Source: an uncultured Candidatus Saccharibacteria bacterium
GTDB lineage: Bacteria > Patescibacteriota > Minisyncoccia > 1-14-0-10-42-19
Direction: 5' to 3'
NCBI GenBank assembly: GCA_964362625.1
Contig: CAYIFA010000001.1
Location: 2,994-66,993 of the forward strand
Length of the DNA: 64,000 nt
Numbering within the stretch: position 1 is the stretch's first letter; every line of letters starts with the position of its first letter. The notes under the pieces were generated by a model that ran no database searches, was not told the origin of the DNA, and was given only the letters and a program-made list of their open reading frames with translations. The position numbers were made by a program, and so were the translations under genes. Positions 24,175-51,207 of the stretch are shown here, piece by piece.

Positions 24175-25110
24175 TTAACTAACCGGAAAGAGTTTGCCGA
24201 TAACCGCAAGTTCGTCTTTTATATTGCGCCGCTCCTTATTCCGGTTGGCATTAAGATGAACCGCAAATGGCCTCCCCCGCCACACATATTCTTCCCATCC
24301 AAAAGAAGCCGCGTCGGGATACCCGAGTTCGGCGAAAGACGTTTCGGAATAATAACCGGGTTTTTTCGGCGCATAGCTAAATCGGTCAGGCAATATTTTT
24401 TCCAAAAAAGAAATCGGGTGTTTTGGCTTAAAAACGGGTTTGGCCAAGTCAAACCGGGCGCTTTGCGAAAAATGCTTTGATATTCTATAACCCGTATCCC
24501 GGGAAATTCTTATCTTGGCGCGTTCTCCCAAAATGGTATTCTGGGCGAACTGCCGAACGCGCTTGTTAACTCTCTGTAAAAAAGATCTGCCGCCAAATGT
24601 ATCATTATAACCAGGCCTAAAATCCAACTCCCGGTAGTCAACACGATGCAAATCAATAAAAAAACAGTTTATGGAAGAAAAGTAGCGATATTTTATTAAA
24701 CGGGCGGGATGATATGGTGTGCCAAAAAAATGCAATTTTTCTTCAAGCATATGTTCGATAACATCAGCAATCCATGCGGGACGCACCAGAAAAAAATCGC
24801 TGTCCAAAATAAGGGCGAAGCGCGTTTTTATATGTTCAAGTGTTTTATGAATTCCGGCGGCATGATGATAACTCCCCCTCATCCAGGAAGATAACCCCTC
24901 GGCTTTCGCTTCCCCAGGAACAATAATAAAACCGCTATCCCGATCGTTGGCCGGCACTTTCCCGAGCGAATTATCAGCGACTACCCAGGCAAAATCCGCT
25001 CCGGGATTCATTTTCTTGGTGAGCAATAAATTAAATTCGAGCAATTCCTTGGTCGCAGTAGTGTGGTATACAGATGAAATCGTCAGATCATGAGAAGAGT
25101 TGCCGCTCAT
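24175..25110 (-). CDS. Hypothetical protein, possible DXD-motif glycosyltransferase
   Basis: A LILDSDFF DXD-like motif is present. No other recognisable signature was found. Confidence 0.3.
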   Translation of the reverse strand: MSGNSSHDLTISSVYHTTATKELLEFNLLLTKKMNPGADFAWVVADNSLGKVPANDRDSGFIIVPGEAKAEGLSSWMRGSYHHAAGIHKTLEHIKTRFALILDSDFFLVRPAWIADVIEHMLEEKLHFFGTPYHPARLIKYRYFSSINCFFIDLHRVDYRELDFRPGYNDTFGGRSFLQRVNKRVRQFAQNTILGERAKIRISRDTGYRISKHFSQSARFDLAKPVFKPKHPISFLEKILPDRFSYAPKKPGYYSETSFAELGYPDAASFGWEEYVWRGRPFAVHLNANRNKERRNIKDELAVIGKLFPVS

Positions 25111-26572: not shown

Positions 26573-27979
26573 TTAAAGGATATTCAGCTGTTTTACGGCG
26601 CCGACTGCGATTAGCTCTATTTCTTCGGCGGCGCGCATGCCGGCAGACACATTTAAACCGAGGGGGCGAATATAATTCTTCACAAACGCGCGCCTCTGCT
26701 CCATTTTATCGTCCTTCCCTTCCAAGAGATTCTCGACTAACTCGCGGAAATGTTCCGGTGATTTAGCAACTAGAAGACAACCTTCTTTAAGAAATTGCTG
26801 AAAATGAACAGCTTCGAGCTGGGTTTCGCGATACTTATCAGTCATTATGGCCACCCCCGGCTTATCTAATATCAACGCGTCAATCATTCCGCTGGTGTTT
26901 ATACCGACCGTGCCGATAGAATAATATAGTGAATCGTAAAAAAACTGGCGAGCATCCGCTGTTGCCGGCAACATTCCTTTTTTAGGAACAATAATTACCC
27001 CGTCGCTTTCAATATTTTCATAAATCTGATAATTAGAAGGGTGAGGCCGTACTGCGATTTGTATCGCCCTAACCAGCTGGTCAGTGGAGTTATCAAGAGC
27101 TTTACGTAAATCCTTAATAAGCCATACTTCATTTTCGGCGATGTTTTTCGATGAACCAAGATAAAGAATATATGGCCAATCGGATTTCAGATTGTTTTCT
27201 CGACAAAATTCTTCACGCGAAATAGATGGCTTTAATTCCCTAAACCATGCGTCGAATAGCGGAGAACCGATAAGACGAATTTTTTCTCTCGGTATACTGT
27301 GATGTTTCATTGCTTCTTCTTGTTGTGCGGCATTCCAGACCAGCACGATGTCCGGAACTACCGGGATAATCCCGCGAACAGTCAAATTATCCCAACTCAT
27401 TACGCTGACAATGCTTGGAATCCCGAGGGCTTTGGCGGCTTTTAGGTATTCGGTATCCGCTGAAGAATGGCGCATGTTGGCCGGAGAAACTACTACGGCG
27501 TTCGGTTTAAGTGTTGTTAGCTTGGTCTTAATTTGCGAATCGGCCGGACCAATATTTTCTACCAGTCCCAACATAAACCCGGCTACCCTATTTTTAATGA
27601 TCCGGTTGGCGAACGAATTTTTTTTAAGCAAAAACGGTCTCGCCCGCCTTGGCAAAAAATTTATCCAGTCACGGCGATAGAAATCAGATTGCCCCCCGAC
27701 AATTAAATAACGGCGATAATTCCTGATTTCTCTTAATGGCGATAAAATATGCCGCGAAAATCCGCGGCTGGACTCAACCAATTCATAATCGAATCTAGCA
27801 TTATTTTCCTTCATCTCCGCCAAAACTTCTGCCGCGCCAAACCTGTCTCTTTTGCTCCACTTTTTATCAAAAAAAACTTTGACCTCGTGTCCGCGTCCGC
27901 ATAATTCCTCGACAATGCTCCGGTAATAAGAGATTAAATTAATGCTCCGAAAAACAAACAATATGCGCATACTAATCAA
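26573..27979 (-). CDS. TagF/CapsuleSynth-like GT-B glycosyl- or glycerophosphotransferase
   Basis: An ILYLGSSKN and AVRPHP motif pair (as in the TagF family) and a GT-B C-terminal motif are present. Length is 468 aa. Confidence 0.45.
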   Translation of the reverse strand: MISMRILFVFRSINLISYYRSIVEELCGRGHEVKVFFDKKWSKRDRFGAAEVLAEMKENNARFDYELVESSRGFSRHILSPLREIRNYRRYLIVGGQSDFYRRDWINFLPRRARPFLLKKNSFANRIIKNRVAGFMLGLVENIGPADSQIKTKLTTLKPNAVVVSPANMRHSSADTEYLKAAKALGIPSIVSVMSWDNLTVRGIIPVVPDIVLVWNAAQQEEAMKHHSIPREKIRLIGSPLFDAWFRELKPSISREEFCRENNLKSDWPYILYLGSSKNIAENEVWLIKDLRKALDNSTDQLVRAIQIAVRPHPSNYQIYENIESDGVIIVPKKGMLPATADARQFFYDSLYYSIGTVGINTSGMIDALILDKPGVAIMTDKYRETQLEAVHFQQFLKEGCLLVAKSPEHFRELVENLLEGKDDKMEQRRAFVKNYIRPLGLNVSAGMRAAEEIELIAVGAVKQLNIL

Positions 27980-29831
27980 AATATTTTCTTAGCCACAGTT
28001 CTAAATGAATCCACTGCCAAATGTGAAAAGAATTGGTATGGCTGATGATCGGAGCTTCGGTATATGCTTTGTATTCCGCGAGTATTTTTTTCTGGTCAAA
28101 ATAATGGCGATTAGCGAATGACTTTGAAGAAAGAATGGAGGTAATCCATGGCCTAAGTTCGCGCTTAAACCATTGACGCTGGGGACTGGGCACCGCGCGC
28201 TTAGGCGCATTCAAAACATACTCAGGCATTATTTTTTTAAGCGCTTGACGCATAAAATATCGCTGTTGGCCGCTATGAATTTTATGCCGACCGGCAAGCG
28301 ATATCCCTAGTTCCATCAAACGATAATCAACAAAAGGCACGCGCTGTTCTATGCCGTAAGCCATGGCCGCGCGATCAGCACTGTGAAGAATGCGCGGTAA
28401 TTTAGTATATAAAATATCGCGATATTGCATATTTTGCAAGGCCGATTCAAATGGTTTTTCGAAATCCGGGCGCTCGTGGTGAGACTGTTTAATAAAATTA
28501 CGGGATAGAACTTCGGCATTGGCAAAACTGCTGGCATCTGCCGATGTGCCGCCGAGAAAATAAGAAGATAAGGAGTTTATAAAAAATCTTAATACAGCGT
28601 GTTCATCAGAAATTGAACGCAGCATTCCGTAAGCATTCAATTCATCATACATCCGATCCAGCCCATCATTTTGCAAAACATCTAGAAAATAAGCGCCCAT
28701 ATAATACTCGTAGCCGGCGCCAACTTCATCTCCACCTTGTCCGCCCAAAATTACCGGAATTTTGTTTTCGCGGCAAACTTTGGCAAGCATGTGCAGGCCG
28801 AATGTCGGCAGCCCGGGGAACGGCTCATCTTGATGCCATAAAACTTCTTCGGCAAGGTCAGACATATCGCTAGGCGAAACTGTTATATACTCCCATTTCC
28901 ACCCCAATCCTTTCGCCAGCGCCTTCATAAAAGGAATTTCTTTGTCCTTATGGTCGCTGTAAACGTGCGAAAACAGCCGGAAATTTTTCTGGCCGCCAAC
29001 TATATGGTGCACCATCGCGGTTACTGCCGAAGAATCAAAACCGCCGGAAAGCTGAACGCCGATCGGAACATCGCTGCGTAATTGGATGCACACCGCGTCT
29101 TTAAAAACGTGGAAAAAATCTCCTGCGGCTTTTCCGCCGCTCCAGTTTGATAAATCAAGCACACGATCTTTTAGATCCCAGTATCGTTCAATCTTTAGTT
29201 TTCCGTTTTTATAAAGCAAAAAGCACCCGGCCGGAAGCTGATGAATATTTTCAAAAAAAGTTTCGTTGGTGTGATGATAATAGCCGTAAGCCAAATAGTC
29301 ATAAATAATTTTATCGTTCGGCTTGGTTTTAATGCCGGCGACGAGTAGTGCCTTTATTTCTGAAGCAAAATAAAATACGCCGTTTTGAATCGCATAATAA
29401 AATGGTTTGACCCCCAGGTGGTCTCGCGCCGCGTATAATTCTTTTTTGTGTTCGTCCCAAAGCGCGAATGCAAAAATGCCATTTAGATGTTCCGGCGTTC
29501 GCTTCCCCCATTTTTTATAACCTTTAAGCAAAACCTCGGTATCCGAAGAGCTCTGCCAGGGACCGGACAACTCTTTTTTTAGCTCAAGATAATTATAAAT
29601 TTCACCATTGAAAGTAATCCAAATTTTTCCTGAAGTATCGGGCATTGGCTGATGGCCAGACGCGCTCAAATCCAAAATACTCAAACGCCGATGCCCGAGC
29701 GCCGCGTTATCCTTTATATAAACTCCCTCATCATCCGACCCGCGATGCCGGATGGCCTTGACCATCCGCGCAAGTAATTTTGACGGTGGTTTTTGATTTT
29801 TTTTACAAACAAACCCGGCAATGCCGCACAT
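27972..29831 (-). CDS. Asparagine synthetase B-family glutamine amidotransferase (WbpS-like sugar amidotransferase candidate)
   Basis: An N-terminal MCGIAGF Ntn nucleophile and a PP-loop SGGFDSS motif are present. Length is 619 aa. Confidence 0.85.
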   Translation of the reverse strand: MCGIAGFVCKKNQKPPSKLLARMVKAIRHRGSDDEGVYIKDNAALGHRRLSILDLSASGHQPMPDTSGKIWITFNGEIYNYLELKKELSGPWQSSSDTEVLLKGYKKWGKRTPEHLNGIFAFALWDEHKKELYAARDHLGVKPFYYAIQNGVFYFASEIKALLVAGIKTKPNDKIIYDYLAYGYYHHTNETFFENIHQLPAGCFLLYKNGKLKIERYWDLKDRVLDLSNWSGGKAAGDFFHVFKDAVCIQLRSDVPIGVQLSGGFDSSAVTAMVHHIVGGQKNFRLFSHVYSDHKDKEIPFMKALAKGLGWKWEYITVSPSDMSDLAEEVLWHQDEPFPGLPTFGLHMLAKVCRENKIPVILGGQGGDEVGAGYEYYMGAYFLDVLQNDGLDRMYDELNAYGMLRSISDEHAVLRFFINSLSSYFLGGTSADASSFANAEVLSRNFIKQSHHERPDFEKPFESALQNMQYRDILYTKLPRILHSADRAAMAYGIEQRVPFVDYRLMELGISLAGRHKIHSGQQRYFMRQALKKIMPEYVLNAPKRAVPSPQRQWFKRELRPWITSILSSKSFANRHYFDQKKILAEYKAYTEAPIISHTNSFHIWQWIHLELWLRKYFD

Positions 29832-29925
29832 ATGATTATGATATTTTAAGCTTTATTATGAAATAACGCAAAGATAAGATCCAAGTCAGGTATTTATTTT
29901 TAGTAAAACATGGTATATTTTCTTC

Positions 29926-30912
29926 ATGGAAAAACTCCTACGCATTCCCCGGGCTAACTATGCGAATCATCCGGCTTATGGCGAGCTCTTTGGCAAACCC
30001 TCATTATTTTTACGAGCTAGGGCTCTTAAGCGTTTTCTGCCTCAATTTTTCCGCCAAATCAAAAGAGCAATCGCTGAAAACCGCCGACCGGTAGATTCTC
30101 TCGAACTGACTGCAGAAGATAACCGCCGCTTTCCATTGCTGGCTACGCTAGTTCGGGATGGAATTGCCGCGCTTAACTTAAGCGATCAGGAGATTACGCG
30201 CATCCGTCAAAACGCCGAACCGCATATTCAAGATTTACAAAAACACAAATATTCAATTCCGGTCGGTAAACGGCAATTTAAAGATAAAGTCCGCGCCATA
30301 CCCAAAAAAGAATTTCCGGAATTCTTCACTATGATCAGTGAAATATTGGGCGGACATCAAGTTATAGAAACATTATCTCGTTATCGGGGCTTCGCTCTGG
30401 CCTTCAATAACATCTTTGTTCATATCAGCGACCCCGACGATGTTGATTGGCGCAACAAATTTAGCGACATCAATCTCCCTGACCCGAAAAGCGTTTATAT
30501 GCACTTTGATTCCAAAATCCAACGCACGAAATGCCTGCTTTATCTTACGACCGTTACTGCCGACAATGGCCCGTTTTGCCATATTCGGGGGAGTAACCGC
30601 ATTAAAACCGGATTTCTGGAGTATGTGACCAGAAAAGCCAATGATAAAAGCGGTCTGGATGGCTGGGAACCCCAAACGCGGCGCCTATTTTCCGCTCTGC
30701 CGAAATTTTTTCAGCACAAATCAGAGTTCGGCAATGACCTCTCGGACTCTGATCCGGAAACCCAAAAGATGCTCGCCTTAGAAAGGCAATTCACTACCAC
30801 TGACGGGAACCTGCTTCTTTTTGACACCGATAGTCTACATCGCGGTGGGATGATAAAAGAAGGACAGCGTATTATGCTGCAAATTGATTTTGTCCGCGCT
30901 TCCAGCGCGTAA
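29926..30912 (+). CDS. PhyH-family Fe(II)/2-oxoglutarate dioxygenase-like protein
   Basis: An HxD motif (MHFDSK), a TADNGPFCHIRGSN motif (compare the PhyH GSH motif) and a distal SLHRGG motif are present. It is one of only a few plus-strand genes. Confidence 0.55.
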   Translation: MEKLLRIPRANYANHPAYGELFGKPSLFLRARALKRFLPQFFRQIKRAIAENRRPVDSLELTAEDNRRFPLLATLVRDGIAALNLSDQEITRIRQNAEPHIQDLQKHKYSIPVGKRQFKDKVRAIPKKEFPEFFTMISEILGGHQVIETLSRYRGFALAFNNIFVHISDPDDVDWRNKFSDINLPDPKSVYMHFDSKIQRTKCLLYLTTVTADNGPFCHIRGSNRIKTGFLEYVTRKANDKSGLDGWEPQTRRLFSALPKFFQHKSEFGNDLSDSDPETQKMLALERQFTTTDGNLLLFDTDSLHRGGMIKEGQRIMLQIDFVRASSA

Positions 30913-30922
30913 CTGGCACGCC

Positions 30923-31933
30923 ATGAACATATTCATCGACGAGCAACTTGAACATTACTTTGCCCGCTACCCGCTTACCTTAATAGACGTCGGCGCAAGC
31001 GGCGGACTCCAAGAAAATTGGCGCGAGGCCGAACGATTTCTTAAAGTAATCGGCTTTGAGCCCGACTCCCGCTCCAAAGCCATGGGGCCAAAAACTTCCG
31101 GAAACATCAACTTGGAATGCGGGCTCCACAATAAAAAAACAGCTGTTGATTTTTATCTGACTCGTTCAAAAACAAAATCATCATTCTTTAAGCCGAATTT
31201 TGATTTTCTTTCCAAGTTTCCTAAATCCGATTTCTATGAAATAGTGGGCAAGCGAAGAATAGAATGCGACACGCTTGATAATCAATTGCGCGGGCATAGT
31301 ATCCAGGATGTTGATTTCATAAAAATAGATACGCAGGGCAGCGAATTATTTATTTTGGAAGGCGCAGAAAACCTGCTCGCTGGCCCGATTTTCGGGATAG
31401 AAGTTGAAGTGGAATTTGCATCAATGTACGAAAACCAGCCGCTTTTTGCCGAAGTCGATTTGTTTTTAAAAAAGCACGGATTCCAACTTTTTGATCTCGC
31501 GCCTTGTTACTGGAAGCGCAAAGGCGGGCGGGCGTTAGGCGGTCCGCAAGGACAATTGATTTATGCCGACGCGCTATATTTTAAAAATGACGCGGCCTTC
31601 AATAGTTTCATCGGCCATCTTACGCCGGATGAACTAAAGAGATCTAAAGTTTTACGCGCGCTTTCCGTATGCTTGCTTTATGGCTATTTTGATTACGCTG
31701 TGGAACTTTTTGAAGCGAATAAAAAAATATTCGGCAAAACTGAATCCGAATTAATTGAATCGCGGATTAAAAATGCCGGTCAAAAATACGGCAAAAACTT
31801 GAAATTCCGCGGCCAGGAAGCGCTCGCGCGCGCGCTCTACAAATTATGGAAAATCTTCACGCCCAAAGATTATGGTTGGAGACGTTTCAGATATAAACCG
31901 GGCAATCGCGCGAGCGACTTCATTTCGCAGTGA
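30923..31933 (+). CDS. FkbM-family methyltransferase
   Basis: LIDVGASGG and IDTQGSELFIL motifs (compare FkbM ikiDvEGaE) are present. The start is trimmed to MNIF to avoid overlapping the upstream gene. Confidence 0.7.
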   Translation: MNIFIDEQLEHYFARYPLTLIDVGASGGLQENWREAERFLKVIGFEPDSRSKAMGPKTSGNINLECGLHNKKTAVDFYLTRSKTKSSFFKPNFDFLSKFPKSDFYEIVGKRRIECDTLDNQLRGHSIQDVDFIKIDTQGSELFILEGAENLLAGPIFGIEVEVEFASMYENQPLFAEVDLFLKKHGFQLFDLAPCYWKRKGGRALGGPQGQLIYADALYFKNDAAFNSFIGHLTPDELKRSKVLRALSVCLLYGYFDYAVELFEANKKIFGKTESELIESRIKNAGQKYGKNLKFRGQEALARALYKLWKIFTPKDYGWRRFRYKPGNRASDFISQ

Positions 31934-31944: not shown

Positions 31945-32838
31945 TTAACTAAATCCGCCGTCCCAAATATATTCTATCTTTTTTCTTTTCCTGGCCGAGG
32001 AAGCAAAAATTCTTATTTTCAAAAATTTATGAATGCGTTTATAGACGCGCCGGAATGAACCTTCTCTTAAAAAAACTCTCAGACGATAACGCAGATAAAA
32101 AATCCTCGAACAGTATTCGCGAGCGATTCGCAACCTGGCCAATTGATGTTGCCTTCTTCTGGTATTAATAATGCTATGCGGGTAAATCGCGTGCTCAAAT
32201 AAGTAGATTCGGCAAAATCGCACTCGGCCGCCTTGATAGATAACTCTCGCGACAAAATCACCGTCCGCGGCCACTGAATTGCATAGTCCGAACTTGGCAA
32301 AGGTTTTTTGGCGGTAAACAAATCCCATGCCGCAGGCGTTATATCTAAACACGTCTTCCGGGCTCGACCCGTAATTAGTGCCGGGCGGCAGCCAATATGG
32401 GAGTTTTTTGGTGCCATATTTGCGCATTCCGCCGCACACCAACAAATCAATTTCCGAATACCGGTTCAAAACCTCAATTGCTTTTTCAATGCCTTCACGG
32501 TAAACAATGTCGTCATCAGACATAAGATAAATGTATCTCCCCCGGGCCAGCATAATTCCTTTATTGGACGCCTCATATGCGTTGCCATCCGGCTCAGATA
32601 CAAAAACGTTAACCAGATTTCCGAAGCTCTTAACTATTTCCAAAGTATTATCATTTGAGCCGCCGTCAATAAGCAATAGTTCGTCATCCGGACCAATAAG
32701 CTCTTTTGCGCGCTCAAGCGCGCTTTCCAGAAATCCTGCCCGGTTTTTTGTAGCCAAGACATACGAAACCCGCTTGGAATGCGCGGCATCGAAACTATAA
32801 GCACTATTTTTATCAGTATTAATCATTTTCCGGGCCAA
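31945..32838 (-). CDS. Glycosyltransferase family 2 (GT-A fold)
   Basis: It has the motifs VSYVLATKNRAGFLESAL and IDGGSNDNT, and a DDD motif. Confidence 0.8.
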   Translation of the reverse strand: MARKMINTDKNSAYSFDAAHSKRVSYVLATKNRAGFLESALERAKELIGPDDELLLIDGGSNDNTLEIVKSFGNLVNVFVSEPDGNAYEASNKGIMLARGRYIYLMSDDDIVYREGIEKAIEVLNRYSEIDLLVCGGMRKYGTKKLPYWLPPGTNYGSSPEDVFRYNACGMGFVYRQKTFAKFGLCNSVAADGDFVARVIYQGGRVRFCRIYLFEHAIYPHSIINTRRRQHQLARLRIAREYCSRIFYLRYRLRVFLREGSFRRVYKRIHKFLKIRIFASSARKRKKIEYIWDGGFS

Positions 32839-33587
32839 GTTCCGATAAATCCTTGCGAAGCGGTTAAAATGCCTTCGTTTTTATACGAGCGCACTTCGTC
32901 CCTCCGAGTCTTGCTGAATTTCCGATAAATTCCCCACTTTTTTGCCCCCCAGCCGCGAGTCCACAACCGCATCATAAGCGGGTGGTCAAATTTCCTGCCG
33001 TAAGTTTGCCACAAGCTTGAATTCTTTTTGACAATCTCGTTCAAAAATACATTGTCGGCGTAAATAACGAATCCGCCCTTTTCAATAATTCGCAGGGTCA
33101 TATCGGTCTCTCCGTGGCTCGAAACAAAACGGTTGTCCAGTCCTCCCAAATTCCGCCATACGCTTTTCTTATATATACCGCAAAGATATGGCATCAGCGG
33201 AGAGCCTTGGTCATCACGGATGAAACGATTTTCTCTTTCCCTATCCCTATGCTTTTTATAAATTAACGAACCAATAGCTAAATCGCTTTTCGCGCCCAAC
33301 ATCGCCGCGTATAATTTATCAAGCGCATGTTCGCTATAAACAATATCATCAACTGTTGGCATTATATATTCGCCTTTAACAAGGCGGCTGGCCGCCTCTA
33401 GACATTGCTGCGGCTTGACATCGCTATACACATACTTAAAATTTTCGGGAAGACTAAAGGTCGGTTTTTCCGGTCCGACAAAAATTAGCTCAAATGGAAC
33501 TTCGTTTGACTTCAGCATTTCATAATAAGCCAGCCACAACTTAGTTCTTTTCGCCGGACCAATTAAACTTATGATCGGGTCCGGCAT
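32823..33587 (-). CDS. Hypothetical protein, possible GT-A-like glycosyltransferase
   Basis: An FVGPEKP and TVDDIVY DxD-like pattern is present. The assignment is weak. Confidence 0.3.
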   Translation of the reverse strand: MPDPIISLIGPAKRTKLWLAYYEMLKSNEVPFELIFVGPEKPTFSLPENFKYVYSDVKPQQCLEAASRLVKGEYIMPTVDDIVYSEHALDKLYAAMLGAKSDLAIGSLIYKKHRDRERENRFIRDDQGSPLMPYLCGIYKKSVWRNLGGLDNRFVSSHGETDMTLRIIEKGGFVIYADNVFLNEIVKKNSSLWQTYGRKFDHPLMMRLWTRGWGAKKWGIYRKFSKTRRDEVRSYKNEGILTASQGFIGTWPGK

Positions 33588-33654
33588 ACAAGATATCCAG
33601 TATATTTATAAATCATAGTACTTATTTTTATACCACGTAAAACCAAGAATTCCA

Positions 33655-33700
33655 ACATTAAAAAAGACAGAGCAAGCTTGCTCTGTCTTTGTGCCCTTTG
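33655..33700. terminator. Bidirectional rho-independent terminator
   Basis: A perfect palindrome (gacagagcaagcttgctctgtc) flanked by aaaaaa on the 5' side and tttgtgccctttgcttt on the 3' side. Confidence 0.65.
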
Positions 33701-33706
33701 CTTTAA

Positions 33707-34681
33707 TTAAACATTTTTACGCCGATGATACCAAGCTATGGTTCGTTTTAGACCTTCCTTTAGTGTTGTTTCGGCTCTAAAGCCAATCAATCGTTCTGCT
33801 TTCGCGGTATCAATCAGACGTTTCGGGATCATTGTCGGTTTTGATTCGTAAAAAATCAGCCGAGGCCCGTAACCTTCGATTTCAAAAGCCAAACGCAATA
33901 CATCTTTGACCGTAACCGGAACGCCAGTCGCGATATTGATCGGCTCGAAAGTCCCCAATTTCTCCATAGCCAGAAGCATGCCGCGAACAAAATCACTGAT
34001 ATAAAGCAAATCCTTAATATCGTTACCGTCGCCCCAAACTTCAATTGGATTGTGGCGTTCAATTACTTTGCGGATATTGGCCGCCACCATATGCGAAGTT
34101 GCCCACTCAAAATCATCATATTCGCCATAGAGATTAGCCGGACGCACTACTACCACCGGCATGGGATTTTTGATTTTCCCTGCGTACATCTCGCACATTA
34201 CTTCGCTAAACTGCTTCATCCAGCCGGCAAAAAAGTATTTTGAAAACAAATTGCCATACTCCATTTCATCTTCTTTGACCGGATGATCGGCTACAGGATA
34301 GACGGCACTGGAAGAAATGAACAGAAACTTCTTGACCGCGGCCTGATGGGCCGCTTCCAGCATCAAAGAATTCATGATTACGTTTGGCGTAACGTGCACA
34401 AGCGGCGTCTTTTCCATAACTGCCGCGCCAGAAGTGTTGGCCGCGCACATAAAGACATAATCCATGCTCCGGACAATGCGTCTTGCATGATTGCCATTGG
34501 TAAGGTCGGCGAATATGTAATCAACCCCCTCATTTGTGTACTGCGGAAGTTTTTTGTGGTAAGTCGCCCGCACTTCCGCCCCCAATTCAACCAATCTAAT
34601 AATCAGATTTGTTCCGACAAACCCGGCACCACCAGTAACCAAAACCTTTTTACCGCGGAAAAAATCGCCCATCTTATTCAT
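33707..34681 (-). CDS. GDP-L-fucose synthase-like NAD-dependent epimerase/reductase (Fcl/WcaG family)
   Basis: The Rossmann motif VTGGAGFVG and an Fcl-type VRPANLYGEYDDF motif are present. Confidence 0.75.
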   Translation of the reverse strand: MNKMGDFFRGKKVLVTGGAGFVGTNLIIRLVELGAEVRATYHKKLPQYTNEGVDYIFADLTNGNHARRIVRSMDYVFMCAANTSGAAVMEKTPLVHVTPNVIMNSLMLEAAHQAAVKKFLFISSSAVYPVADHPVKEDEMEYGNLFSKYFFAGWMKQFSEVMCEMYAGKIKNPMPVVVVRPANLYGEYDDFEWATSHMVAANIRKVIERHNPIEVWGDGNDIKDLLYISDFVRGMLLAMEKLGTFEPINIATGVPVTVKDVLRLAFEIEGYGPRLIFYESKPTMIPKRLIDTAKAERLIGFRAETTLKEGLKRTIAWYHRRKNV

Positions 34682-35210
34682 CTACTGACCCCCTTTCGTC
34701 TCTCATCGACACTATCGGGTTTTTGACCGGCCACCACACGTTAAAGCGCGAATCGTTATATCTGACGGTAAACTGTCTGGCCATTCCCTGATACACGCAG
34801 GATTGCTTGTAGTGGAAAATTGCATCTTCGCTCATCACCACATAAGCATGGCCGTGTTTAGGTGGAATCAAAACTTGCATTTTGTTCTCGGCGCTCGGAA
34901 CAAAGCTCTGCCACTGACCAAACTGGTCTGAATCCGAATCGTAATTCAACACCACTATATAAAACTTGCCCTTAAGGCAAGTCACCAGTTTCCAGGTTCG
35001 GTCATCGCCATGAAAACCACGCAAAACGTATTTGGATGATTTGGCAACGTTGTCTTCCAGAAATTCAAGCTCAAAACCAGTTTCTTGTCTGATAACATCG
35101 GTATAAACCTTCTTGTTATACAACTCCTCATATGTGCCGCGATGATCCTCAAAAGCGAAGTGTTTAAAGACCAAAACGTTTTTTAGTTTTGTCCTTTCAA
35201 CCGAAACCAT
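34674..35210 (-). CDS. dTDP-4-dehydrorhamnose 3,5-epimerase family (RmlC-like cupin)
   Basis: FEDHRG and RGFHGD motifs (compare RmlC DeRGfF and RGLHfQ) are present. The 39-aa hydrophobic N-terminal extension of the ORF is judged spurious, so the start is trimmed to MVSVER. Confidence 0.7.
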   Translation of the reverse strand: MVSVERTKLKNVLVFKHFAFEDHRGTYEELYNKKVYTDVIRQETGFELEFLEDNVAKSSKYVLRGFHGDDRTWKLVTCLKGKFYIVVLNYDSDSDQFGQWQSFVPSAENKMQVLIPPKHGHAYVVMSEDAIFHYKQSCVYQGMARQFTVRYNDSRFNVWWPVKNPIVSMRDERGSVDE

Positions 35211-35350
35211 ACAGTCCTCCTGCCTTTGAGTGGTTTTTATGTCAAGGACCTTCAGACTTAAGGAAAATGATAGCAAAACCAAAAAAAAAGTCCAGAACGC
35301 AAGCACCATCACAGGTTCCCGTATCAATGTATTGACGTTCCGGGAACGTC

Positions 35351-35382
35351 AAAATGCCATAAATCTTGGCAAAAAAAACCCG
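35351..35382 (-). terminator. Rho-independent terminator
   Basis: A run of 8 A precedes a 9-bp stem (ccgcttcgc-acat-agcgaagcgg). Confidence 0.7.
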
Positions 35383-35408
35383 CTTCGCACATAGCGAAGC
35401 GGTTCGGT

Positions 35409-36377
35409 TCATTTGTAAGGATTAAATCTCGTTTCTTTTTTATTCCGGTTATCTTTATACCATTCGACGGTCATCCGTATGCCATCATTTAATGAAACGC
35501 GCGGGAAAAACCCATAAGAACTTATCCGTCTGGTATCAAGTATGCGCTTACGATCTCCTGACGGCTTAGAAGTATCTGAGGCCACCGCCGGTTTGGCTTT
35601 TGCATATTCAATAATCAAGTTAAGCAATTCCAGAATTTTAACACCGTGCCCGCTACCAATGTTTACCGGTTCGTATATTTCGCTTTCAGCCGCAAAAAGC
35701 ATTCCTCTGGCCACGTCTTCGGAATAAATAAAGTCGCGCTCTTGCATGCCGTCGCCGCTCAAAATTACAGCGTTCTCTCCGTCGCAAATTCTGCGTATGA
35801 GCGACGGAATAACCATCGCGCCCGCTGACCAAAAATCATCATAAGGGCCGTAGGTATTCGCCGGACGCACAATCGAGGTCTTGAAGCCGTATTCAATACG
35901 ATAAGCTTCGGCCTGCATTTCACCAGTCAATTTTGCCCATCCGGGGAACAAATCATTTGACGACGGCAACGCCTTACGGGCGTTATCTTCGTAAAAAACT
36001 TCAGCTGACGGATATACCCCGATAGAACTCGCGAGAAGATATCCTTTAACGCCGGCCTCGCGCGCGGCGCGCAAAAGATTTACGTCCAGAAGAATATTGG
36101 AATCTAGGAGCGTTGCGGGCCGGGTCTTGGCCATCACCGGCGAACCCTTAACGCAAAGCAGATTAAAAACATAATCCATGGTGCTACAAGCCCACAAGCA
36201 ATTCCGATAATCAAGCAAATCAAGGTTATGAAAAATGCATCCAGGATGCGCGCGCGACTTATGGTCTAAGGAAACCGCAAAAACCTGCGCCTCTTTAGCA
36301 ATAAGCATTTCGACCAGCGGAATTCCAATAAGCCCGGTCCCGCCAGCGACTAAAACTCTTTTCCCGCTAAAGTCCAT
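35409..36377 (-). CDS. NAD-dependent epimerase/dehydratase (Fcl-like), paralog
   Basis: VLVAGGTGLIG and VRPANTYGPYDDF motifs are present. It is a paralog of the gene at 47534..48520. Confidence 0.75.
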   Translation of the reverse strand: MDFSGKRVLVAGGTGLIGIPLVEMLIAKEAQVFAVSLDHKSRAHPGCIFHNLDLLDYRNCLWACSTMDYVFNLLCVKGSPVMAKTRPATLLDSNILLDVNLLRAAREAGVKGYLLASSIGVYPSAEVFYEDNARKALPSSNDLFPGWAKLTGEMQAEAYRIEYGFKTSIVRPANTYGPYDDFWSAGAMVIPSLIRRICDGENAVILSGDGMQERDFIYSEDVARGMLFAAESEIYEPVNIGSGHGVKILELLNLIIEYAKAKPAVASDTSKPSGDRKRILDTRRISSYGFFPRVSLNDGIRMTVEWYKDNRNKKETRFNPYK

Positions 36378-38440
36378 TAGAAATGCCCTCCTATCTCCGA
36401 ACCCATCGGTTGATTGCCGTAAAGATAGGCGCCGCGCTTATTGCCATACCAAACTACATAACGAAACCAATCTTCCCAACTCCACCATTTTTGCGAAGCG
36501 CGATCAATGCTGTAACGAAAACTGCCTTTCTCGAGCTCAACCTCTCGCATTGCGCGCTTACCCTGATAGAATTCGCGGAGATTGTAAGAACTCTCAAACA
36601 CCAAATCTTTATCGCAAAAAGGCAGTTTAACAAGAGCGCGATTGAAACCGATGGCTTCCTTAAGCAGCTGCGGGTCAACCACCAGCGGTCGTGAAGCAAA
36701 AAAACGAAAGAGCGCATTCTTGGCTTCAACATAGAACTGATCAAGTTTGCCTTCCCGGCAAAGTTTAATGAAGATAAACTCATCCGGCGGCCAATAGATA
36801 TTCAGCCATTCCTTAGACGGACATTGCTCAATCCCGCCCTGCTGGATGCTTTTGGCTTTGTCGGTAAAAAATGACCCGATTTCAGAGAGTATCGGAAACT
36901 CGGTTAAATCACCTTCGGTAAATACTTCTATTAAATCGCGGTAGCTCGCTAGGGTCGTTTCGGCGAGGATGATTAATGGAATCTGAAATATCTTGTCAAA
37001 ATGCAAGAGTGATGTTGTCCAACAAAATACCCGGGTGCGTACCCAATCTTCTCTGGACATCGATTTTGTTTCAATGACAATATCTTCCGTCTCTGGTATT
37101 CCGCCCGGATCTTCATCAATTACGCCGTGATAAATTACTGATTCTACTTCCACGGTTTTCAAACCGTATTTCTCAATGTATTCCGGTTCAGCCATTGGAG
37201 CATTAGGCATCATGGATAGATTGCCGAACTGAATACGATTATGCTGGCCTTCCTTGATAGTGAGGGCGATGCCGTCAGCAAACGAATCATATGTCTCTTT
37301 GGATAATGCAATGATCATGTCGCTATATGTTTCTATATTGGCCTCAACAAATCGTCGGTTAAGATTTATGAAGTCAATGGAAGAAATATTTTCACGGTCG
37401 ATGGCCTTAAGGACTTCGGGGCTCCGCGATTGAAACGCGAGAGTCACGCCCTTATTCAATCCAGCGTCAGCCAAAATTTTTTGCGCTTGAAAAATCCGTT
37501 CTTCGGCGTTTTTGGCGTTTTGCACCGAAAGCGCGTGCGGATAGCCATACTTGGCTTTCACTTCCGCCGCTTTGCGCGCGATGTCTACATCTCTGGGGAA
37601 AATGCCGAAGTTAGCGTCACAGCAAAAAATGAATTCAATTTTGCGTTCGGCAAACCATTCCAACTCCTTATAGAGCGTATCCAATTCAAACCGCATTACT
37701 TTGCTCTTGGTGTTTGAACCCCAATCGCAAAAAGTGCAGGAGAAAGGACAGCCGCGGTTAGTCTCCCACATAGCGAGCCACTTCTCGTTTTCGTTTTCCC
37801 GCATCAAAGCATCGAGTGCCCCATTTAGATAAGGCGACGGCATGCTAGTCAAGGACCGCATACGCCCCATCCATTCGGTCTGCCGGTATACTCCACTTTC
37901 AGCGATAAAACTTGTTGAAGGAATTAGATCCCAGTGGCCTCGCCCGAAAAAAGCTTTTTCCAGAATATGCACAAAAACCTGCTCTCCCTCATTGTGACAG
38001 CAAATATCAACAAACGGGTTTTCACGGAGGAACTTTTCGGAGCGGTCAGGAACTTCCGGTCCTCCGAAAACAGTAATAATATCGGGTTTTTTTCTTTTAA
38101 GCCGGCGCGCGATTTCCCGCGAAAGGTTTTTATTCCAGCAATATAAACTGAAGCCGACCAGATCAGAATCTTCCAGCTTCTCCACCGCTTCATCTACCGG
38201 CATACGCTTGTAAATCGGCGGCGCGAAAGTGTAACATTCGGGCCGCGCGAGATTGTGTTCGGCATAAACCTGCAAATCCGCCACCGAAAGCGGCAGATAA
38301 CTTTCTCCGGAAAAGCTGTTGTTGATTTGCACCAAACCGATATTCATCGCGCGGCTTGGCGCAAAAATCAAATTTTCGGTTTTTTCTGATCCCTTAAACT
38401 GGCTCTGCGGGCTGATGACCGGTAAAACTTGACTGACCAT
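36377..38440 (-). CDS. Cobalamin (B12)-binding radical SAM enzyme (class B radical SAM, candidate C-methyltransferase), paralog 1
   Basis: An N-terminal B12-binding-like domain, a CPFSCTFCDW CxxxCxxC radical SAM cluster motif and a long C-terminal extension are present. The alternative start MNIGLV is at 38347. Confidence 0.8.
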   Translation of the reverse strand: MVSQVLPVISPQSQFKGSEKTENLIFAPSRAMNIGLVQINNSFSGESYLPLSVADLQVYAEHNLARPECYTFAPPIYKRMPVDEAVEKLEDSDLVGFSLYCWNKNLSREIARRLKRKKPDIITVFGGPEVPDRSEKFLRENPFVDICCHNEGEQVFVHILEKAFFGRGHWDLIPSTSFIAESGVYRQTEWMGRMRSLTSMPSPYLNGALDALMRENENEKWLAMWETNRGCPFSCTFCDWGSNTKSKVMRFELDTLYKELEWFAERKIEFIFCCDANFGIFPRDVDIARKAAEVKAKYGYPHALSVQNAKNAEERIFQAQKILADAGLNKGVTLAFQSRSPEVLKAIDRENISSIDFINLNRRFVEANIETYSDMIIALSKETYDSFADGIALTIKEGQHNRIQFGNLSMMPNAPMAEPEYIEKYGLKTVEVESVIYHGVIDEDPGGIPETEDIVIETKSMSREDWVRTRVFCWTTSLLHFDKIFQIPLIILAETTLASYRDLIEVFTEGDLTEFPILSEIGSFFTDKAKSIQQGGIEQCPSKEWLNIYWPPDEFIFIKLCREGKLDQFYVEAKNALFRFFASRPLVVDPQLLKEAIGFNRALVKLPFCDKDLVFESSYNLREFYQGKRAMREVELEKGSFRYSIDRASQKWWSWEDWFRYVVWYGNKRGAYLYGNQPMGSEIGGHF

Positions 38441-38569
38441 TATTTAGTCTCCTTAATTTGTGGCGACTTTCGAATAGTTTTTATCAGCGAACTTGTTTCT
38501 ATGTCAATCCTTACATTTTTTTAGCTGCTTAGTCAAATGCCGCTAAATCGGTAACGCGTATCGGGGCCA

Positions 38570-38599
38570 AATAAAAAGCCGGCGTAGAATACGCCGGAC
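38570..38599 (-). terminator. Rho-independent terminator
   Basis: aaataaaaag precedes an 8-bp stem (ccggcgta-gaa-tacgccgg). Confidence 0.65.
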
Positions 38600-38611
38600 C
38601 TGAGCCAACCT

Positions 38612-39562: not shown

Positions 39563-39663
39563 TAGCCTCCCACGGAATGTCAATATGCTTATGCTATTTA
39601 TAATGGTACGTAAAAATCTAATCCTGTCAACAAAAACCTCCGGCCGAAACCGGAGGCAAGAGA

Positions 39664-42594: not shown

Positions 42595-42613
42595 GGTACT
42601 TCGCTTCAACTCA

Positions 42614-46077: not shown

Positions 46078-47472
46078 ATGGGTTCAAACGTGGCAAATGA
46101 TCCTCGTTTACTTATCGAACGTTATACGCAACTAAAAACCAAGTACAACCGCGACGCCAAGTGGTACACCGAATACCCGCACAAGCATTTTTGGTCTGAA
46201 AGTTTCGGTGAAGAGGACCTTAAAGACGCTTTGCGCAATTTCTTCCTGACCAGAAACGATCCGACTCTACTTTATTTCCATATGCCTTTCTGCAACAAAC
46301 AGTGTTATTTTTGCACTTGTCATACCGAAATTTCACAGGATTACGAAGATATCTTGAAGTACATGAAATCGGCATACATGGAAATAGAGCTATACCGCAA
46401 ATTCTTCGAGACACACGATGTTAAGCCCAACATCCGCGAGGTGCATTTTGGCGGCGGTACGCCTTCAAATCTTAAAGAAAAAGATTTCGGTGAATTGAAA
46501 AACGCTCTTAGCGCCTTCACCGACTTCGGCCAAGTTGAGGAATTCGCGATGGAGATAGACCCGCGCTACGTTAAACCGGACAAACTGCATTTCTTTGCCG
46601 ACTGCGGCCTTAATCGAGTGTCATTCGGCATTCAAGATTTTAATGACAAAGTGATGATGGCGGTTAACCGCCGACAACCGGCTAAAATTATTGAAAATCT
46701 GTTGACGCCGGATGTCCGCGCGAGATTTCAGAGTATCAATTTCGACATTCTCTGCGGACTTCCCTTTCAAACCCGCGAATCATTCAAGGCAACCATCGAA
46801 AAAGTCATTGAACTGACGCCCGACCGCATCGCACTTTATTTTACATCCAAACCCAATGTTAAATTCTCTCCGCACTGGCTTAAGATGCCGCAAGGTGTCA
46901 TACCGAATGAAATCGACAAGAAAATAATGTTCGTGGACGCCTTAGAAATGCTGCGAGATGCCGGCTACATCCGCACCGGCTACGACATGTTTGCCAAGGC
47001 CACCGATAAAGTGGCGAAGGCTCTGGATACCGGCCAGACCACCTGGAATTCATTCGGTTCAACTCCTGGCCGGTGCCTCGATTATCTCGCCCTTGGCGTG
47101 CATAGCTATGGCCGCCTGGGACCAGAGATCTACTACCAAAACGTCTATGAACTCCAGCATTATGAGGGTTTGCTTACTGCCGGAATGTTTCCGGTGTTTC
47201 GCGGGCACAAACTGGGTAAAGACGACCAAATCCGCCGTGACGTTATTGTCACGCTAAGGGTATACTTCGACATTCATTTCGGGACAATGGAAAATCGTTA
47301 TCAGATAAACTTTCGCGATTACTTCCAAAAAGAACTTGCGATTTTGCAAGAATACGCCGACGACGAGCTGATCGAAATCAAGCCGGATGGCATCGTGATT
47401 ACCGAACTCGGCAAACAGTTTGCCAATCTCATCTGTGCAGTTTTTGACAAATACGCCAAAGATCGTAAATAA
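46078..47472 (+). CDS. hemN: HemN-family radical SAM protein (oxygen-independent coproporphyrinogen III dehydrogenase-like)
   Basis: A CNKQCYFCTC CxxxCxxC motif, an HFGGGTPS motif, RVSFGIQDFNDKV and a C-terminal IRRDVI region are all collinear with E. coli HemN. Length is 464 aa. Confidence 0.8.
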   Translation: MGSNVANDPRLLIERYTQLKTKYNRDAKWYTEYPHKHFWSESFGEEDLKDALRNFFLTRNDPTLLYFHMPFCNKQCYFCTCHTEISQDYEDILKYMKSAYMEIELYRKFFETHDVKPNIREVHFGGGTPSNLKEKDFGELKNALSAFTDFGQVEEFAMEIDPRYVKPDKLHFFADCGLNRVSFGIQDFNDKVMMAVNRRQPAKIIENLLTPDVRARFQSINFDILCGLPFQTRESFKATIEKVIELTPDRIALYFTSKPNVKFSPHWLKMPQGVIPNEIDKKIMFVDALEMLRDAGYIRTGYDMFAKATDKVAKALDTGQTTWNSFGSTPGRCLDYLALGVHSYGRLGPEIYYQNVYELQHYEGLLTAGMFPVFRGHKLGKDDQIRRDVIVTLRVYFDIHFGTMENRYQINFRDYFQKELAILQEYADDELIEIKPDGIVITELGKQFANLICAVFDKYAKDRK

Positions 47473-49395: not shown

Positions 49396-51207
49396 CTAAT
49401 CTTTCAATTGTCGAAGAATGTCATAAACCCCAAGAACTTCATAACGCGAACGCCAGTAAGCGGACTCGCAAAGGATTTCTTCCGTGGCCTGCATTAGTCG
49501 CAACGGCGCTTCATTATCGCCAAGCTTCTTCAAACACAGACCGTAAAAAGTGTGCCCTAGTGGGTTTTCCGGGGCAACGCGCCGACAAATATCCTCAAGC
49601 ATTTTTGCGATTTTGGCGAGTTTGACAGGATCAGCAATACCGATTATTTTTTCATAATTAATCTTGTAATCCACTAAAAACCAATAATCGCCTATATCCT
49701 TAGCATCGGGGACAGAGTCGGGATCGGCCACCTTAAACAAATCAACAAAATCCCTAGACCGAGTCTTTTCGCTGGATTCGCGCAGATATTGCCGGCCATG
49801 CGGCCCAATTAAGAAGGCGACATCTTTAGTTTGCAGACTCTCCTCAATCAACCCCTGCTCTACCATCGCGTAATATATTTCAGTTGACGGCAGAGGGTTT
49901 AGGGCTTGAAGCGGATACCAATCATAACAAAGCTCAAGAGCAAAATTTACCGTATCGGAAATCATGCGCACCGTTTCATTCGGAAATCCCAGAATCAGAA
50001 ATCCTTTTACAAATATATGCGGATATTCGTCAATGAATGTTTTAGATTTTCTGAAAGTCGCGAGTGTCCCTGGTTTATGCATGGCCCGGAGCATCTTCTC
50101 ATTGCCGGATTCGATTCCGAGATTAAAGCCGATGCATCCTGATTCAGACATCGCTTGCATAATTGCCGGCGTAATTGCCGCCGAAATCAAGCCGTTGGAA
50201 GCATCCCAGGTTATGTCCATTTTTCTTTCGGTTATTTCATTGAACAAGGCCATCGCTCTTTTACCGTCAAAGAGCAGGTCGTCATCAAGCCAGGTAATGT
50301 GCCTGATCCCATATTTTTCGCTCAACTCCTGAATTTCATCGACAACGCTCTTAACGCTTCTCTCGCGTACTCCTGGTCCATTGAAAGAAGCAACTGAACA
50401 AAAACTGCAATGCGCCCGGCAACCGCGGTTGGAAAGAACGCAAGCGGCCCTACGCCCTTGCCGCATATAAACATAAGACCCAATTTGTCCTCGCGCGTCA
50501 TAAAGCTCCACCGGTAAATCATGATATAAAGGTGCTGCGTCAATTTCGGCCGGACCCGGAGTAGCCCGCTCCTCAATAGCAACGTAATCGCCGCCAATCA
50601 TAGTTCCGATTTGCGCCAAAACTTCTTCGCCCAGATATCCATTTACAAAATCCAGAGTATCCGGAAAGCTTTTATCGCATTCGTATACGCCGATAAAATC
50701 AAGGTGCGGACAATCTTCCATGGCCAACTTTCTGGCGTTAGATAAATGAACTCCGCCGCCAAAAACCGTCAATTCCGGGTCATGCTCTTTGATGGCCGCG
50801 GAAACCAGCTTAATCGCGCTATGCGACATGGTAAACATTCCGGAGAGTCCGACCAAGTGCGGCTGAAATGAGCCGAGACGTTCAATTAACTTCTCCTTCC
50901 AGACACCGAAATAAAAGCTTTCGCGCGCGATATGCGCGTAGTCAAGAACCTCAAGATTAAGATCCAAGATGTCGGTCTGGTAGCCGCGGTTTGTGAGATC
51001 GCGGCAAAGCACTCCCACCCCATAAGGCTGATAGGCCCAGTAGCGATTGCGTATAGCGCGGTCTACAATAAAAGCATGTTCTTCAATGTGCGGAAGCTGA
51101 ATCATAAGAATGCGCGTGCATGGCGTCTTAACCACCGCTTTCAGCTTACGCGCGATTTTCAGCCGTGCATCTTCGCCCTGAGTACTTACCGGCAACTTCC
51201 AGGTCAT
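49396..51207 (-). CDS. Cobalamin (B12)-binding radical SAM enzyme, paralog 2
   Basis: An N-terminal B12-binding-like domain and an SNRGCRAHCSFCSV CxxxCxxC motif are present. Length is 603 aa. Confidence 0.8.
   Translation of the reverse strand: MTWKLPVSTQGEDARLKIARKLKAVVKTPCTRILMIQLPHIEEHAFIVDRAIRNRYWAYQPYGVGVLCRDLTNRGYQTDILDLNLEVLDYAHIARESFYFGVWKEKLIERLGSFQPHLVGLSGMFTMSHSAIKLVSAAIKEHDPELTVFGGGVHLSNARKLAMEDCPHLDFIGVYECDKSFPDTLDFVNGYLGEEVLAQIGTMIGGDYVAIEERATPGPAEIDAAPLYHDLPVELYDARGQIGSYVYMRQGRRAACVLSNRGCRAHCSFCSVASFNGPGVRERSVKSVVDEIQELSEKYGIRHITWLDDDLLFDGKRAMALFNEITERKMDITWDASNGLISAAITPAIMQAMSESGCIGFNLGIESGNEKMLRAMHKPGTLATFRKSKTFIDEYPHIFVKGFLILGFPNETVRMISDTVNFALELCYDWYPLQALNPLPSTEIYYAMVEQGLIEESLQTKDVAFLIGPHGRQYLRESSEKTRSRDFVDLFKVADPDSVPDAKDIGDYWFLVDYKINYEKIIGIADPVKLAKIAKMLEDICRRVAPENPLGHTFYGLCLKKLGDNEAPLRLMQATEEILCESAYWRSRYEVLGVYDILRQLKD

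Follow-up and report, generated by a model that had tools for sequence, protein, structure and literature searches.

An oxygenase-methyltransferase gene pair in a Saccharibacteria genome

The stretch of DNA considered here, hereafter the window, comprises 64,000 nucleotides (nt) of contig CAYIFA010000001.1 (assembly GCA_964362625.1, positions 2,994 to 66,993 of the forward strand) from an uncultured Candidatus Saccharibacteria bacterium. The element in question is a pair of adjacent plus-strand genes encoding a divergent PhyH-fold oxygenase dependent on Fe(II) and 2-oxoglutarate (2OG) (gene 1) and an FkbM-family methyltransferase dependent on S-adenosylmethionine (SAM) (gene 2). The gene table for the window lists 55 genes, 51 of them minus-strand and 4 plus-strand; genes 1 and 2 (29926-30912 and 30923-31933) are the sole adjacent plus-strand genes, and the remaining two, hemN and a kinase gene (53247-53876), are solitary. 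The initial annotation, made from the sequence alone, was correct in describing the pair as the only such neighbours in a minus-strand array. The open reading frames (ORFs) at 29926-30912 (+, 328 amino acids (aa)), 30884-31933 (+, 349 aa from TTG) and 48543-49268 (-, 241 aa) were confirmed. For gene 2, the ATG at 30923, which follows the stop codon of gene 1 at a distance of 10 nt, is the more likely start, since the resulting 336-aa length matches homologs and the metagenome gene call; the TTG at 30884 is the alternative. A gap of 94 bp with 23% GC separates the pair from a divergent asnB-like gene, and one of 11 bp separates gene 2 from a convergent gene for a family 2 glycosyltransferase (GT2). 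Rfam and tRNA scans found no RNA features in the window.

A family of PhyH-type oxygenases with its own N-terminal region

Gene 1 scores 18.1 bits (E 0.0033) against PF05721 (PhyH), below the Pfam gathering threshold of 22 bits, and NCBIfam has no model for it. A word-indexed search returned 35 unnamed relatives, and an exhaustive profile search recovered 318 clusters (50% identity) with full-length matches at E<=1e-30. A PhyH match at E<0.1 is present in 22 of 27 relatives (best 5.7e-07), and some family members pass the threshold (P0091, 27.8 bits; P0097, 27.7 bits). By sequence criteria, gene 1 represents a real unannotated family that lies mostly below the Pfam threshold.

Across an alignment of 27 members reaching down to 30% identity, the facial triad HxD...H (H193, D195 and H305) is invariant. 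PhyH enzymes are expected to place a basic residue for the C5 carboxylate of 2OG about 10 residues past the distal histidine, and the predicted 2OG-binding R315 of gene 1 is invariant in the same alignment and aligned with the matching region of ColD in a profile alignment. The Fe(II)/2OG motifs read from the single sequence by the initial annotation hold across the 27 sequences, with all four residues present. H15, Y18 and G79 are invariant too and lie N-terminal to the Pfam match, in a region of about 190 aa that is mostly helical in the structural model. The motif IPRxDYxxHPAYG (29926-29985, residues 1-20) is kept family-wide; it lies beyond the canonical PhyH core, and confidence in its modelled structure is high. 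The AlphaFold2 model (pLDDT 94.4) adopts a double-stranded beta-helix fold nearest to PhyH-subfamily structures. Together, these features support the assignment of gene 1 as a PhyH-type Fe(II)/2OG oxygenase with an intact triad, for which 2OG/O2-dependent catalysis is predicted. The list of structural neighbours is flat and mixes hydroxylases, epimerases, cyclases, a deaminating enzyme and halogenases, so that the reaction type is not transferable from it. A halogenase function (cf. SyrB2, CurA and WelO5) was rejected because gene 1 carries HxD rather than HxA/G.

The FkbM-family methyltransferase

Gene 2 exceeds both curated cut-offs for the FkbM family, with 74.3 bits against PF05050 (Methyltransf_21; cut-off 22.7) and 45.4 bits against TIGR01444 (cut-off 37.7; residues 19-154), which confirms the FkbM signature noted earlier. 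A Gly-rich SAM motif, LIDVGASGG, occupies residues 20-28 of the 336-aa form (DVGASGG, 22-28), and a C-terminal extension of about 130 aa follows the Pfam domain. Homologs of 331-336 aa align over their full length, and a PDB sequence search found no solved-structure relative of the protein.

Recurrent pairing and a natural fusion

FkbM neighbours of the oxygenase were sought by hmmsearch across all loci fetched for comparison (L numbers; P numbers denote proteins). The two genes adjoin each other in the lineage of the window, L001 and L037, as well as in L005, L006, L007/L008, L011, L013, L027, L033 and L035, which amounts to about ten independent lineages and includes both gene orders. The order is reversed in L007/L008, where the pair sits beside Wzm/Wzt; two FkbM genes lie by the oxygenase in L013; and the pair in L035 came to light by blind sampling, with an FkbM homolog as the point of departure. 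An overlap of 4 nt joins the two genes in L005, L006 and L011. In addition, P0050 is a natural fusion of 622 aa that joins an oxygenase (residues 7-333, 37% identical to the window protein) to an FkbM domain (394-548). FkbM-linked oxygenases occupy several deep branches of a neighbour-joining tree. Recurrent adjacency, overlapping genes and the fusion strongly support, at the level of genome comparison, the view that the pair is a conserved functional unit whose enzymes cooperate, as the initial annotation had supposed in proposing that they act together. Literature searches that combined either family, FkbM or PhyH, with the terms polysaccharide, nonulosonic acid or capsule brought up no characterised case of such a pair.

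Other members of the oxygenase family occur in different company. A soil/rhizosphere clade (L009 8001-8990; L002 2550-3479; L014-L022) that includes a Vicinamibacterales metagenome-assembled genome (MAG) is 42-44% identical to the gene 1 protein, and the L009 oxygenase gene lies between those for a 1281-aa Ser/Thr kinase and a STAS protein. P0091 and P0105 carry N-terminal TPR repeats. Two or three PhyH-like paralogs stand side by side or within a few kb in L010 (2-1033), L025 (2961-3818 and 7552-8601), L026 and L035 (12093-13001). The family probably has more than one function.

The surrounding glycan locus

From about 3.9 kb to its right end, the window is occupied by one glycan locus of at least 60 kb (Table 1), a very large share for a Patescibacteria genome, which is typically about 1 Mb. 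Besides three NeuB-type synthases, this locus encodes two cytidine monophosphate (CMP)-type cytidylyltransferases, a NeuC-like epimerase, about ten short-chain dehydrogenase/reductase (SDR) epimerases/dehydratases, an RmlC-like enzyme, two B12-radical SAM enzymes, a transketolase, an E1 alpha/beta pair, another thiamine diphosphate (ThDP) enzyme, AsnB, GT2, a TagF-like transferase, a DegT aminotransferase, and a sulfotransferase beside an adenosine 5'-phosphosulfate (APS)-kinase fusion. It is broken up by uvrA, a DUF84 nucleoside triphosphatase (NTPase) gene and hemN.

Table 1. Positions of the gene pair and associated features in the window.
Feature	Coordinates	Strand	Evidence or remark
Divergent PhyH-fold Fe(II)/2OG oxygenase (gene 1), 328 aa, unannotated family	29926..30912	+	HxD...H, Arg, fold model
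FkbM-family SAM-dependent methyltransferase (gene 2), 336 aa	30923..31933	+	PF05050, TIGR01444
AT-rich divergent spacer between AsnB-like gene and oxygenase, 94 bp	29832..29925	.	23% GC
GT2 (GT-A) glycosyltransferase, convergent with the pair	31945..32838	-	PF00535, 67 bits
AsnB-type Gln-dependent amidotransferase	27972..29831	-	PF00733 + GATase domains; TIGR01536, 423.9 bits
GT-B-fold transferase, 468 aa, no Pfam family	26573..27979	-	
Protein of 311 aa, family unassigned, co-occurs with the pair	24175..25110	-	homologs in L005, L006, L035
Canonical PhyH Fe(II)/2OG oxygenase, 241 aa	48543..49268	-	PF05721, 90.5 bits
B12-binding radical SAM enzyme, directly upstream of the 241-aa PhyH gene	49396..51207	-	PF02310, PF04055
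HemN-type radical SAM protein	46078..47472	+	TIGR00538, 355.7 bits (cut-off 324.95)
NeuB-type synthase	4918-5928		
NeuB-type synthase, fused to cupin	12024-13568		
NeuB-type synthase	17551-18633		

Across the loci compared, the neighbours of the pair include GT2, GT-B, GT61 and TagF-like transferases, Wzm/Wzt, NeuB, DegT and SDR epimerases. All FkbM-linked loci with enough flanking sequence are glycan loci, often with GT2 and a GT-B transferase, and no locus of either kind, with or without FkbM, showed a lipid or phytanoyl context; the sugar setting proposed at the outset is therefore borne out. Judged from gene neighbourhoods, a recurring module consists of GT2, the oxygenase and FkbM, often with the 468-aa GT-B protein, the 311-aa protein and an AsnB-type amidotransferase. 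The AsnB-type protein of the window probably acts as an amidotransferase on a sugar carboxylate; Pfam, NCBIfam and PDB searches with the 311-aa protein produced no match.

The 468-aa GT-B protein weakly matches the NCBIfam entry "BFO_1060 family glycosyltransferase". BFO_1060 is listed among the homologs of the Tannerella forsythia transferases Tanf_01245 and TFUB4_00887, which are genetically needed for adding pseudaminic (Pse) or legionaminic acid (Leg) derivatives to the O-glycan (PMC5420450). A PDB sequence search with the 468-aa protein gave chance-level matches (E>=0.25), and the only matches of its family profile, to HP0242 and a designed knot protein along a helical segment, are uninformative. 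This recurrent companion of the pair may be a TagF-like or a nonulosonic-acid transferase. In L013 and L027 the pair has NeuB homologs for company, as does the oxygenase, with no identified FkbM, on the P0007 contig; a nonulosonic-acid residue is thus a reasonable but unproven candidate substrate.

Several further features of the locus deserve mention. A module of a CMP-type cytidylyltransferase, a 648-aa transketolase-like protein and an SDR enzyme (window 13568-17345) is 35-54% identical across loci and accompanies members of the oxygenase family in L004 (840-8945), a Chloroflexota MAG, and in L007/L008 (L007 1-4700), which hints at an unusual CMP-activated sugar made via ThDP-dependent C2 transfer. 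A 257-aa cytidylyltransferase-like/APS-kinase fusion adjoins a 317-aa sulfotransferase (55895-57626, -), and this adjacency suggests that the glycan is sulfated. The housekeeping genes uvrA (18724-21567, -) and the DUF84 ITP/XTP-ase gene (42614-43150, -) lie within the glycan array; GC content is lowest in the window at 42-44 kb (0.39), and the third-codon-position GC (GC3) of the DUF84 NTPase gene is 0.29.

In-place inversion of the pair

Comparison with related loci accounts for the unusual strand of the pair. In L006, all genes of the series GT2-oxygenase-FkbM-AsnB-468 aa-145 aa-epimerase-311 aa-epimerase are co-directional, with the 241-aa PhyH gene and a hemN on the opposite strand ahead of them; the window retains the L006 gene order throughout, at 47-83% identity, with only the oxygenase-FkbM segment flipped. 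L011 likewise carries a co-directional GT2-oxygenase-FkbM series, preceded by DJ-1, B12-radical SAM, the 241-aa PhyH gene and hemN, and in these relatives and L035 GT2 is immediately upstream of the oxygenase in the same direction. The AsnB-type gene, divergent from the oxygenase in the window, is directly downstream of FkbM in L006 (ortholog identity 82%). The flipped orientation is shared by three independent assemblies: the window, L001 (an identical 12-kb contig from the 0.1 µm fraction of a Hainich groundwater metagenome) and L037 (an 89%-identical relative from a different project). What looked like an island is thus part of a module, co-directional in related loci, that has been turned around in place.

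The initial annotation had instead asked whether the pair is a mobile cassette, and this reading, together with that of a phase-variable invertible element whose orientation toggles expression of the pair or of the flanking operon, is scarcely credible. Its attraction lies in the isolation of the only adjacent two-gene opposite-strand segment in an array biased 51 to 4, and in the lower identity of GT2, oxygenase and FkbM to their L006 and L011 counterparts (47-69%) relative to the flanking genes (65-85%). Higher divergence would be expected in the specificity-determining part of a glycan locus. The signatures of mobility are missing. No flanking inverted repeats were found at the pair boundaries, where matches are weak (70-81% complementarity) and mostly inside coding sequence; the best candidates span 24 nt with 71-75% complementarity, again within coding sequence, and the idea of an invertible switch was rejected on these grounds. 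The window ORFs that were scanned contain no recombinase or transposase domain, and the orientation is constant in all three assemblies, including the 89%-identical relative. Base composition is equally ordinary: the GC of genes 1 and 2 (0.464 and 0.442, against 0.451±0.022 for all genes) and their GC3 (0.465 and 0.472, against 0.459±0.039) lie within 1 standard deviation, and codon usage is unremarkable, so that a foreign origin was also rejected. The coding-strand GC skew of the pair (-0.096 and +0.016) departs from that of the array (+0.110±0.064) and, relative to the co-directional orthologs in L006 (+0.067 and +0.122) and L011 (-0.047 and +0.104), has moved toward the new strand. Such partial amelioration suggests, if weakly, that the flip is not recent.

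Other rearrangements are visible nearby. A 13-kb block (32823-45878) that lies between GT2 and hemN in the window is absent from this position in L006 and L011; it holds genes for a 254-aa unknown protein, two epimerases, an RmlC-like protein, a 687-aa B12-radical SAM protein, a 351-aa unknown protein, E1 beta/alpha, the DUF84 NTPase, a GDP-mannose-dehydratase-like protein and a GHMP kinase. The L011 homolog of 43823-44803 (75% identical) sits just after FkbM. By gene-order comparison, the glycan locus is reshuffled between close lineages.

The divergent spacer and expression

The 94-bp spacer aligns along its length with L037, and a three-way alignment that includes L001 has a mean column identity of 87%. 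It contains TGGTATATT at 29911-29919 (+), an extended -10-like element that ends 6 nt before the gene 1 ATG, and L037 carries TGCTATATT at the same place, differing at the degenerate position only. The extended -10 element described earlier is thus present in the divergent region but statistically unremarkable, with a TGNTATATT count no different from chance (2 copies in the window against 2.7 expected). A promoter scan also gave a minus-strand TTCATA-16-CATAAT match at 29862-29835. The spacer must carry one or more promoters, created or retained after the inversion. No Shine-Dalgarno sequence lies between TGGTATATT and the gene 1 ATG, and this, with the proximity of the motif to the start codon, implies a leaderless mRNA if TGGTATATT is used; a leaderless gene 1 transcript from this candidate promoter is plausible. 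At the other end, the scan showed no terminator between the convergent FkbM and GT2 genes, so that the inversion probably splits a former operon and creates antisense read-through.

TATAAT-like boxes 3-8 nt before the ATG, without a Shine-Dalgarno sequence, precede the genes at 3018-3602, 17551-18633, 18724-21567, 27972-29831, 29926-30912 and 44886-45878, and internal genes of the array have GGAGG-type sites. This placement of boxes at first-in-operon genes suggests that leaderless transcripts may be frequent in this organism.

A second PhyH enzyme, its radical SAM neighbour and hemN

The 241-aa PhyH protein matches profile positions 1-211 of 213 of PF05721. Its triad, H105-Q-D107 and H197, aligns with the metal ligands of PHYHD1, with an Arg at 207/209, and PDB sequence matches include PHYHD1 (7e-11) and GriE (3.6e-9). 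Every NCBIfam equivalog score falls far below its cut-off. Orthologs in L011 and L006 are 78-80% identical, and the position of the gene directly downstream of the B12-radical SAM gene is repeated in L011. The initial annotation had placed a second PhyH enzyme here beside a B12-radical SAM gene, and the intact triad and profile score substantiate it. Close paralogy with the gene 1 family was rejected (hhalign probability 0.16%), there being no detectable kinship beyond the superfamily level. The overlapping ORF at 47534-48694 (-, 386 aa) extends 152 nt into the end of this gene, and its epimerase domain begins only at residue 67; its true start is likely an internal Met (MYNFDGK..., ~48520), leaving a 22-nt gap.

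In L006 (683-2080) and L011 (3582-4979), hemN lies directly between the 241-aa PhyH gene and GT2-oxygenase-FkbM and is 83-85% identical to the window gene, whereas about 13 kb (32823-45878) separates hemN from GT2 in the window. Because a true coproporphyrinogen oxidase would be odd in a Patescibacterium, the HemN-type protein may be a HemN-like class C radical SAM methyltransferase engaged in sugar tailoring.

Proposed function and alternatives

Building on the gene identities, catalytic residues, predicted fold, inversion, conserved pairing, single fusion and glycan context described above, we propose with moderate confidence that the coupled pair tailors one residue of a surface glycan. The oxygenase would use O2 and 2OG to hydroxylate an unactivated C-H bond, either on the sugar residue itself or on an N-acyl/alkyl substituent, and the FkbM enzyme would then O-methylate that residue at a hydroxyl, quite possibly the one just introduced. 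Inverted in place in this lineage, the pair now points away from asnB, out of the 94-bp spacer, and converges on GT2.

Several observations weigh against this proposal. Dependence on O2 fits poorly with the fermentative way of life generally ascribed to Patescibacteria. The promoter remains a candidate. Scans for consensus promoters (8 against 5.2 expected) and terminators (7 against 4.5 expected) both returned chance-level counts. The P0050 fusion is known from a single 3.5-kb metagenome contig. The pairing is also not universal: FkbM is missing from the soil clade (Vicinamibacterales and related; L002, L009 and L014-L022), from the outgroup (L003 and L029-L032) and from a few further loci, and the FkbM-less loci whose neighbours were examined (L002, L003 and L009) have non-glycan neighbours. 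Conversely, the gene 2 subfamily (~331-336 aa) is abundant, with more than 1682 matches against 35 for the oxygenase in the same word-indexed search, and two of three blind-sampled FkbM homologs adjoin no oxygenase, so that an oxygenase-made hydroxyl is not a general requirement for an enzyme of the gene 2 type.

One alternative is a scheme in which the two enzymes share a sugar and a pathway and nothing more, the FkbM enzyme methylating a pre-existing hydroxyl while the oxygenase catalyses something other than hydroxylation, such as KanJ-like oxidative deamination to a ketone, SnoN-like epimerisation or desaturation. We regard it as unlikely. The initial annotation had invoked KanJ, but KanJ proved no closer to gene 1 than other PhyH-type enzymes, neither KanJ nor SnoN showed a sequence-level link to it in a PDB profile search at E<=10, and the fusion and 4-nt overlaps point to a coupling closer than a shared pathway. 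Reversal of the two steps is a distinctly poorer prospect: here, O-methylation by FkbM would come first, and the oxygenase would oxidise the methyl group or a nearby C-H to a methylenedioxy bridge or orthoester-type linkage, yielding an unusual cross-linked sugar within a surface glycan. The AviO, EvdO and HygX oxygenases of orthosomycin antibiotics form linkages of this kind, and HygX, AviO, EvdO and EvdMO1 are among the structures nearest to gene 1. Yet the HygX match covers a local motif of 46 residues, the structural list favours no orthoester synthases over hydroxylases, and to our knowledge neither orthoesters nor methylenedioxy bridges occur in bacterial surface glycans. The E1 alpha/beta pair of the window does resemble the proposed eurekanate-branching enzymes (PMC10338323), but it belongs to the 13-kb block that L006 and L011 lack next to the pair. 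More improbable still is a reading in which the pair modifies a non-glycan substrate (a protein, for instance one of the surface or pilus that is hydroxylated and methylated, or else a lipid or small molecule) and occupies a glycan locus incidentally, given the consistent presence of glycosyltransferases and sugar-nucleotide enzymes around FkbM-linked oxygenases.

A more specific form of surface-glycan tailoring would combine the pair with the GT-B protein and the NeuB-type synthases to cap the surface glycan of an ultra-small Patescibacterium with a hydroxylated, O-methylated nonulosonic acid. We give this version a small chance, and the same holds for the structures it might yield, for example an N-glycolyl- or methoxyacetyl-type acyl group, or a 9-hydroxy/9-O-methyl derivative of a 9-deoxy sugar. 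If the cap exists, it would represent an O2/2OG-dependent bacterial route to a modification for which animals use the unrelated Rieske enzyme CMAH, and the oxygenases would form a new enzyme family marked by conserved N-terminal sequence outside the PhyH match.

If the pair works as proposed, an unannotated branch of PhyH-type enzymes gains both a likely partner, FkbM, and a likely arena, surface glycans, and the natural fusion P0050 offers a single protein that is directly expressible for biochemistry. It would also mean that a Patescibacteria genome spends at least 60 kb on an elaborate glycan pathway with O2-dependent steps included, which bears on surface construction in these tiny and probably host-attached cells and on whether they coexist with oxygen. 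The practical outcome is mainly a gain in annotation, replacing the label of a KanJ-like island or mobile cassette.

Relation to known systems

PhyH-type enzymes that tailor sugars include SnoK and SnoN in nogalamycin biosynthesis, AviO1, EvdO1, EvdO2 and HygX in the biosynthesis of orthosomycins and hygromycin B, and KanJ in that of kanamycin. The identity of these enzymes to gene 1 is just 12-21%, and no single neighbour stands out. Gene 1 differs from them in falling below the PhyH threshold and in its N-terminal region of about 190 aa with the invariant H15 and Y18, as well as in its setting, a surface-glycan locus of a Patescibacterium rather than an actinomycete antibiotic cluster. The 241-aa protein, in contrast, resembles PhyH/PHYHD1/GriE/EctD-like hydroxylases in its full-length PF05721 match, its PHYHD1 and GriE hits and its intact triad, but its partner is a B12-radical SAM enzyme, and its setting is a glycan locus, not coenzyme A-ester or amino-acid metabolism.

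FkbM-family genes have been reported in lipopolysaccharide O-antigen cassettes, for example in Xanthomonas BXO1 (bioRxiv 10.1101/2022.03.02.482478). Gene 2 resembles the family (PF05050/TIGR01444) in its scores and Gly-rich SAM motif, and differs in belonging to a subfamily of ~331-336 aa with the C-terminal extension of about 130 aa, for which no characterised member was identified.

A parallel to the pair as a whole is EvdMO1 (PDB 6ec3) of everninomicin biosynthesis, which PMC10338323, citing Starbird et al. 2018, presents as a fused SAM methyltransferase and PhyH-type 2OG oxygenase acting on a sugar. Its methyltransferase-oxygenase fusion parallels P0050 and the adjacent or overlapping gene pairs. 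The domain order is different, however, with the oxygenase preceding the methyltransferase in P0050 and the oxygenase-like region C-terminal in 6ec3 (residues 308-453 matched); moreover, the methyltransferase here is of the FkbM type (PF05050), and the sequences are not detectably related beyond the fold. Both enzyme superfamilies, and the tailoring of antibiotic sugars by an oxygenase plus a methyltransferase, were known already. New here are the oxygenase family, which lacked annotation and has a conserved N-terminal region of its own, the repeated association of its members with FkbM in surface-glycan loci, occasionally as a fusion, and the occurrence of the family in a Patescibacteria genome.

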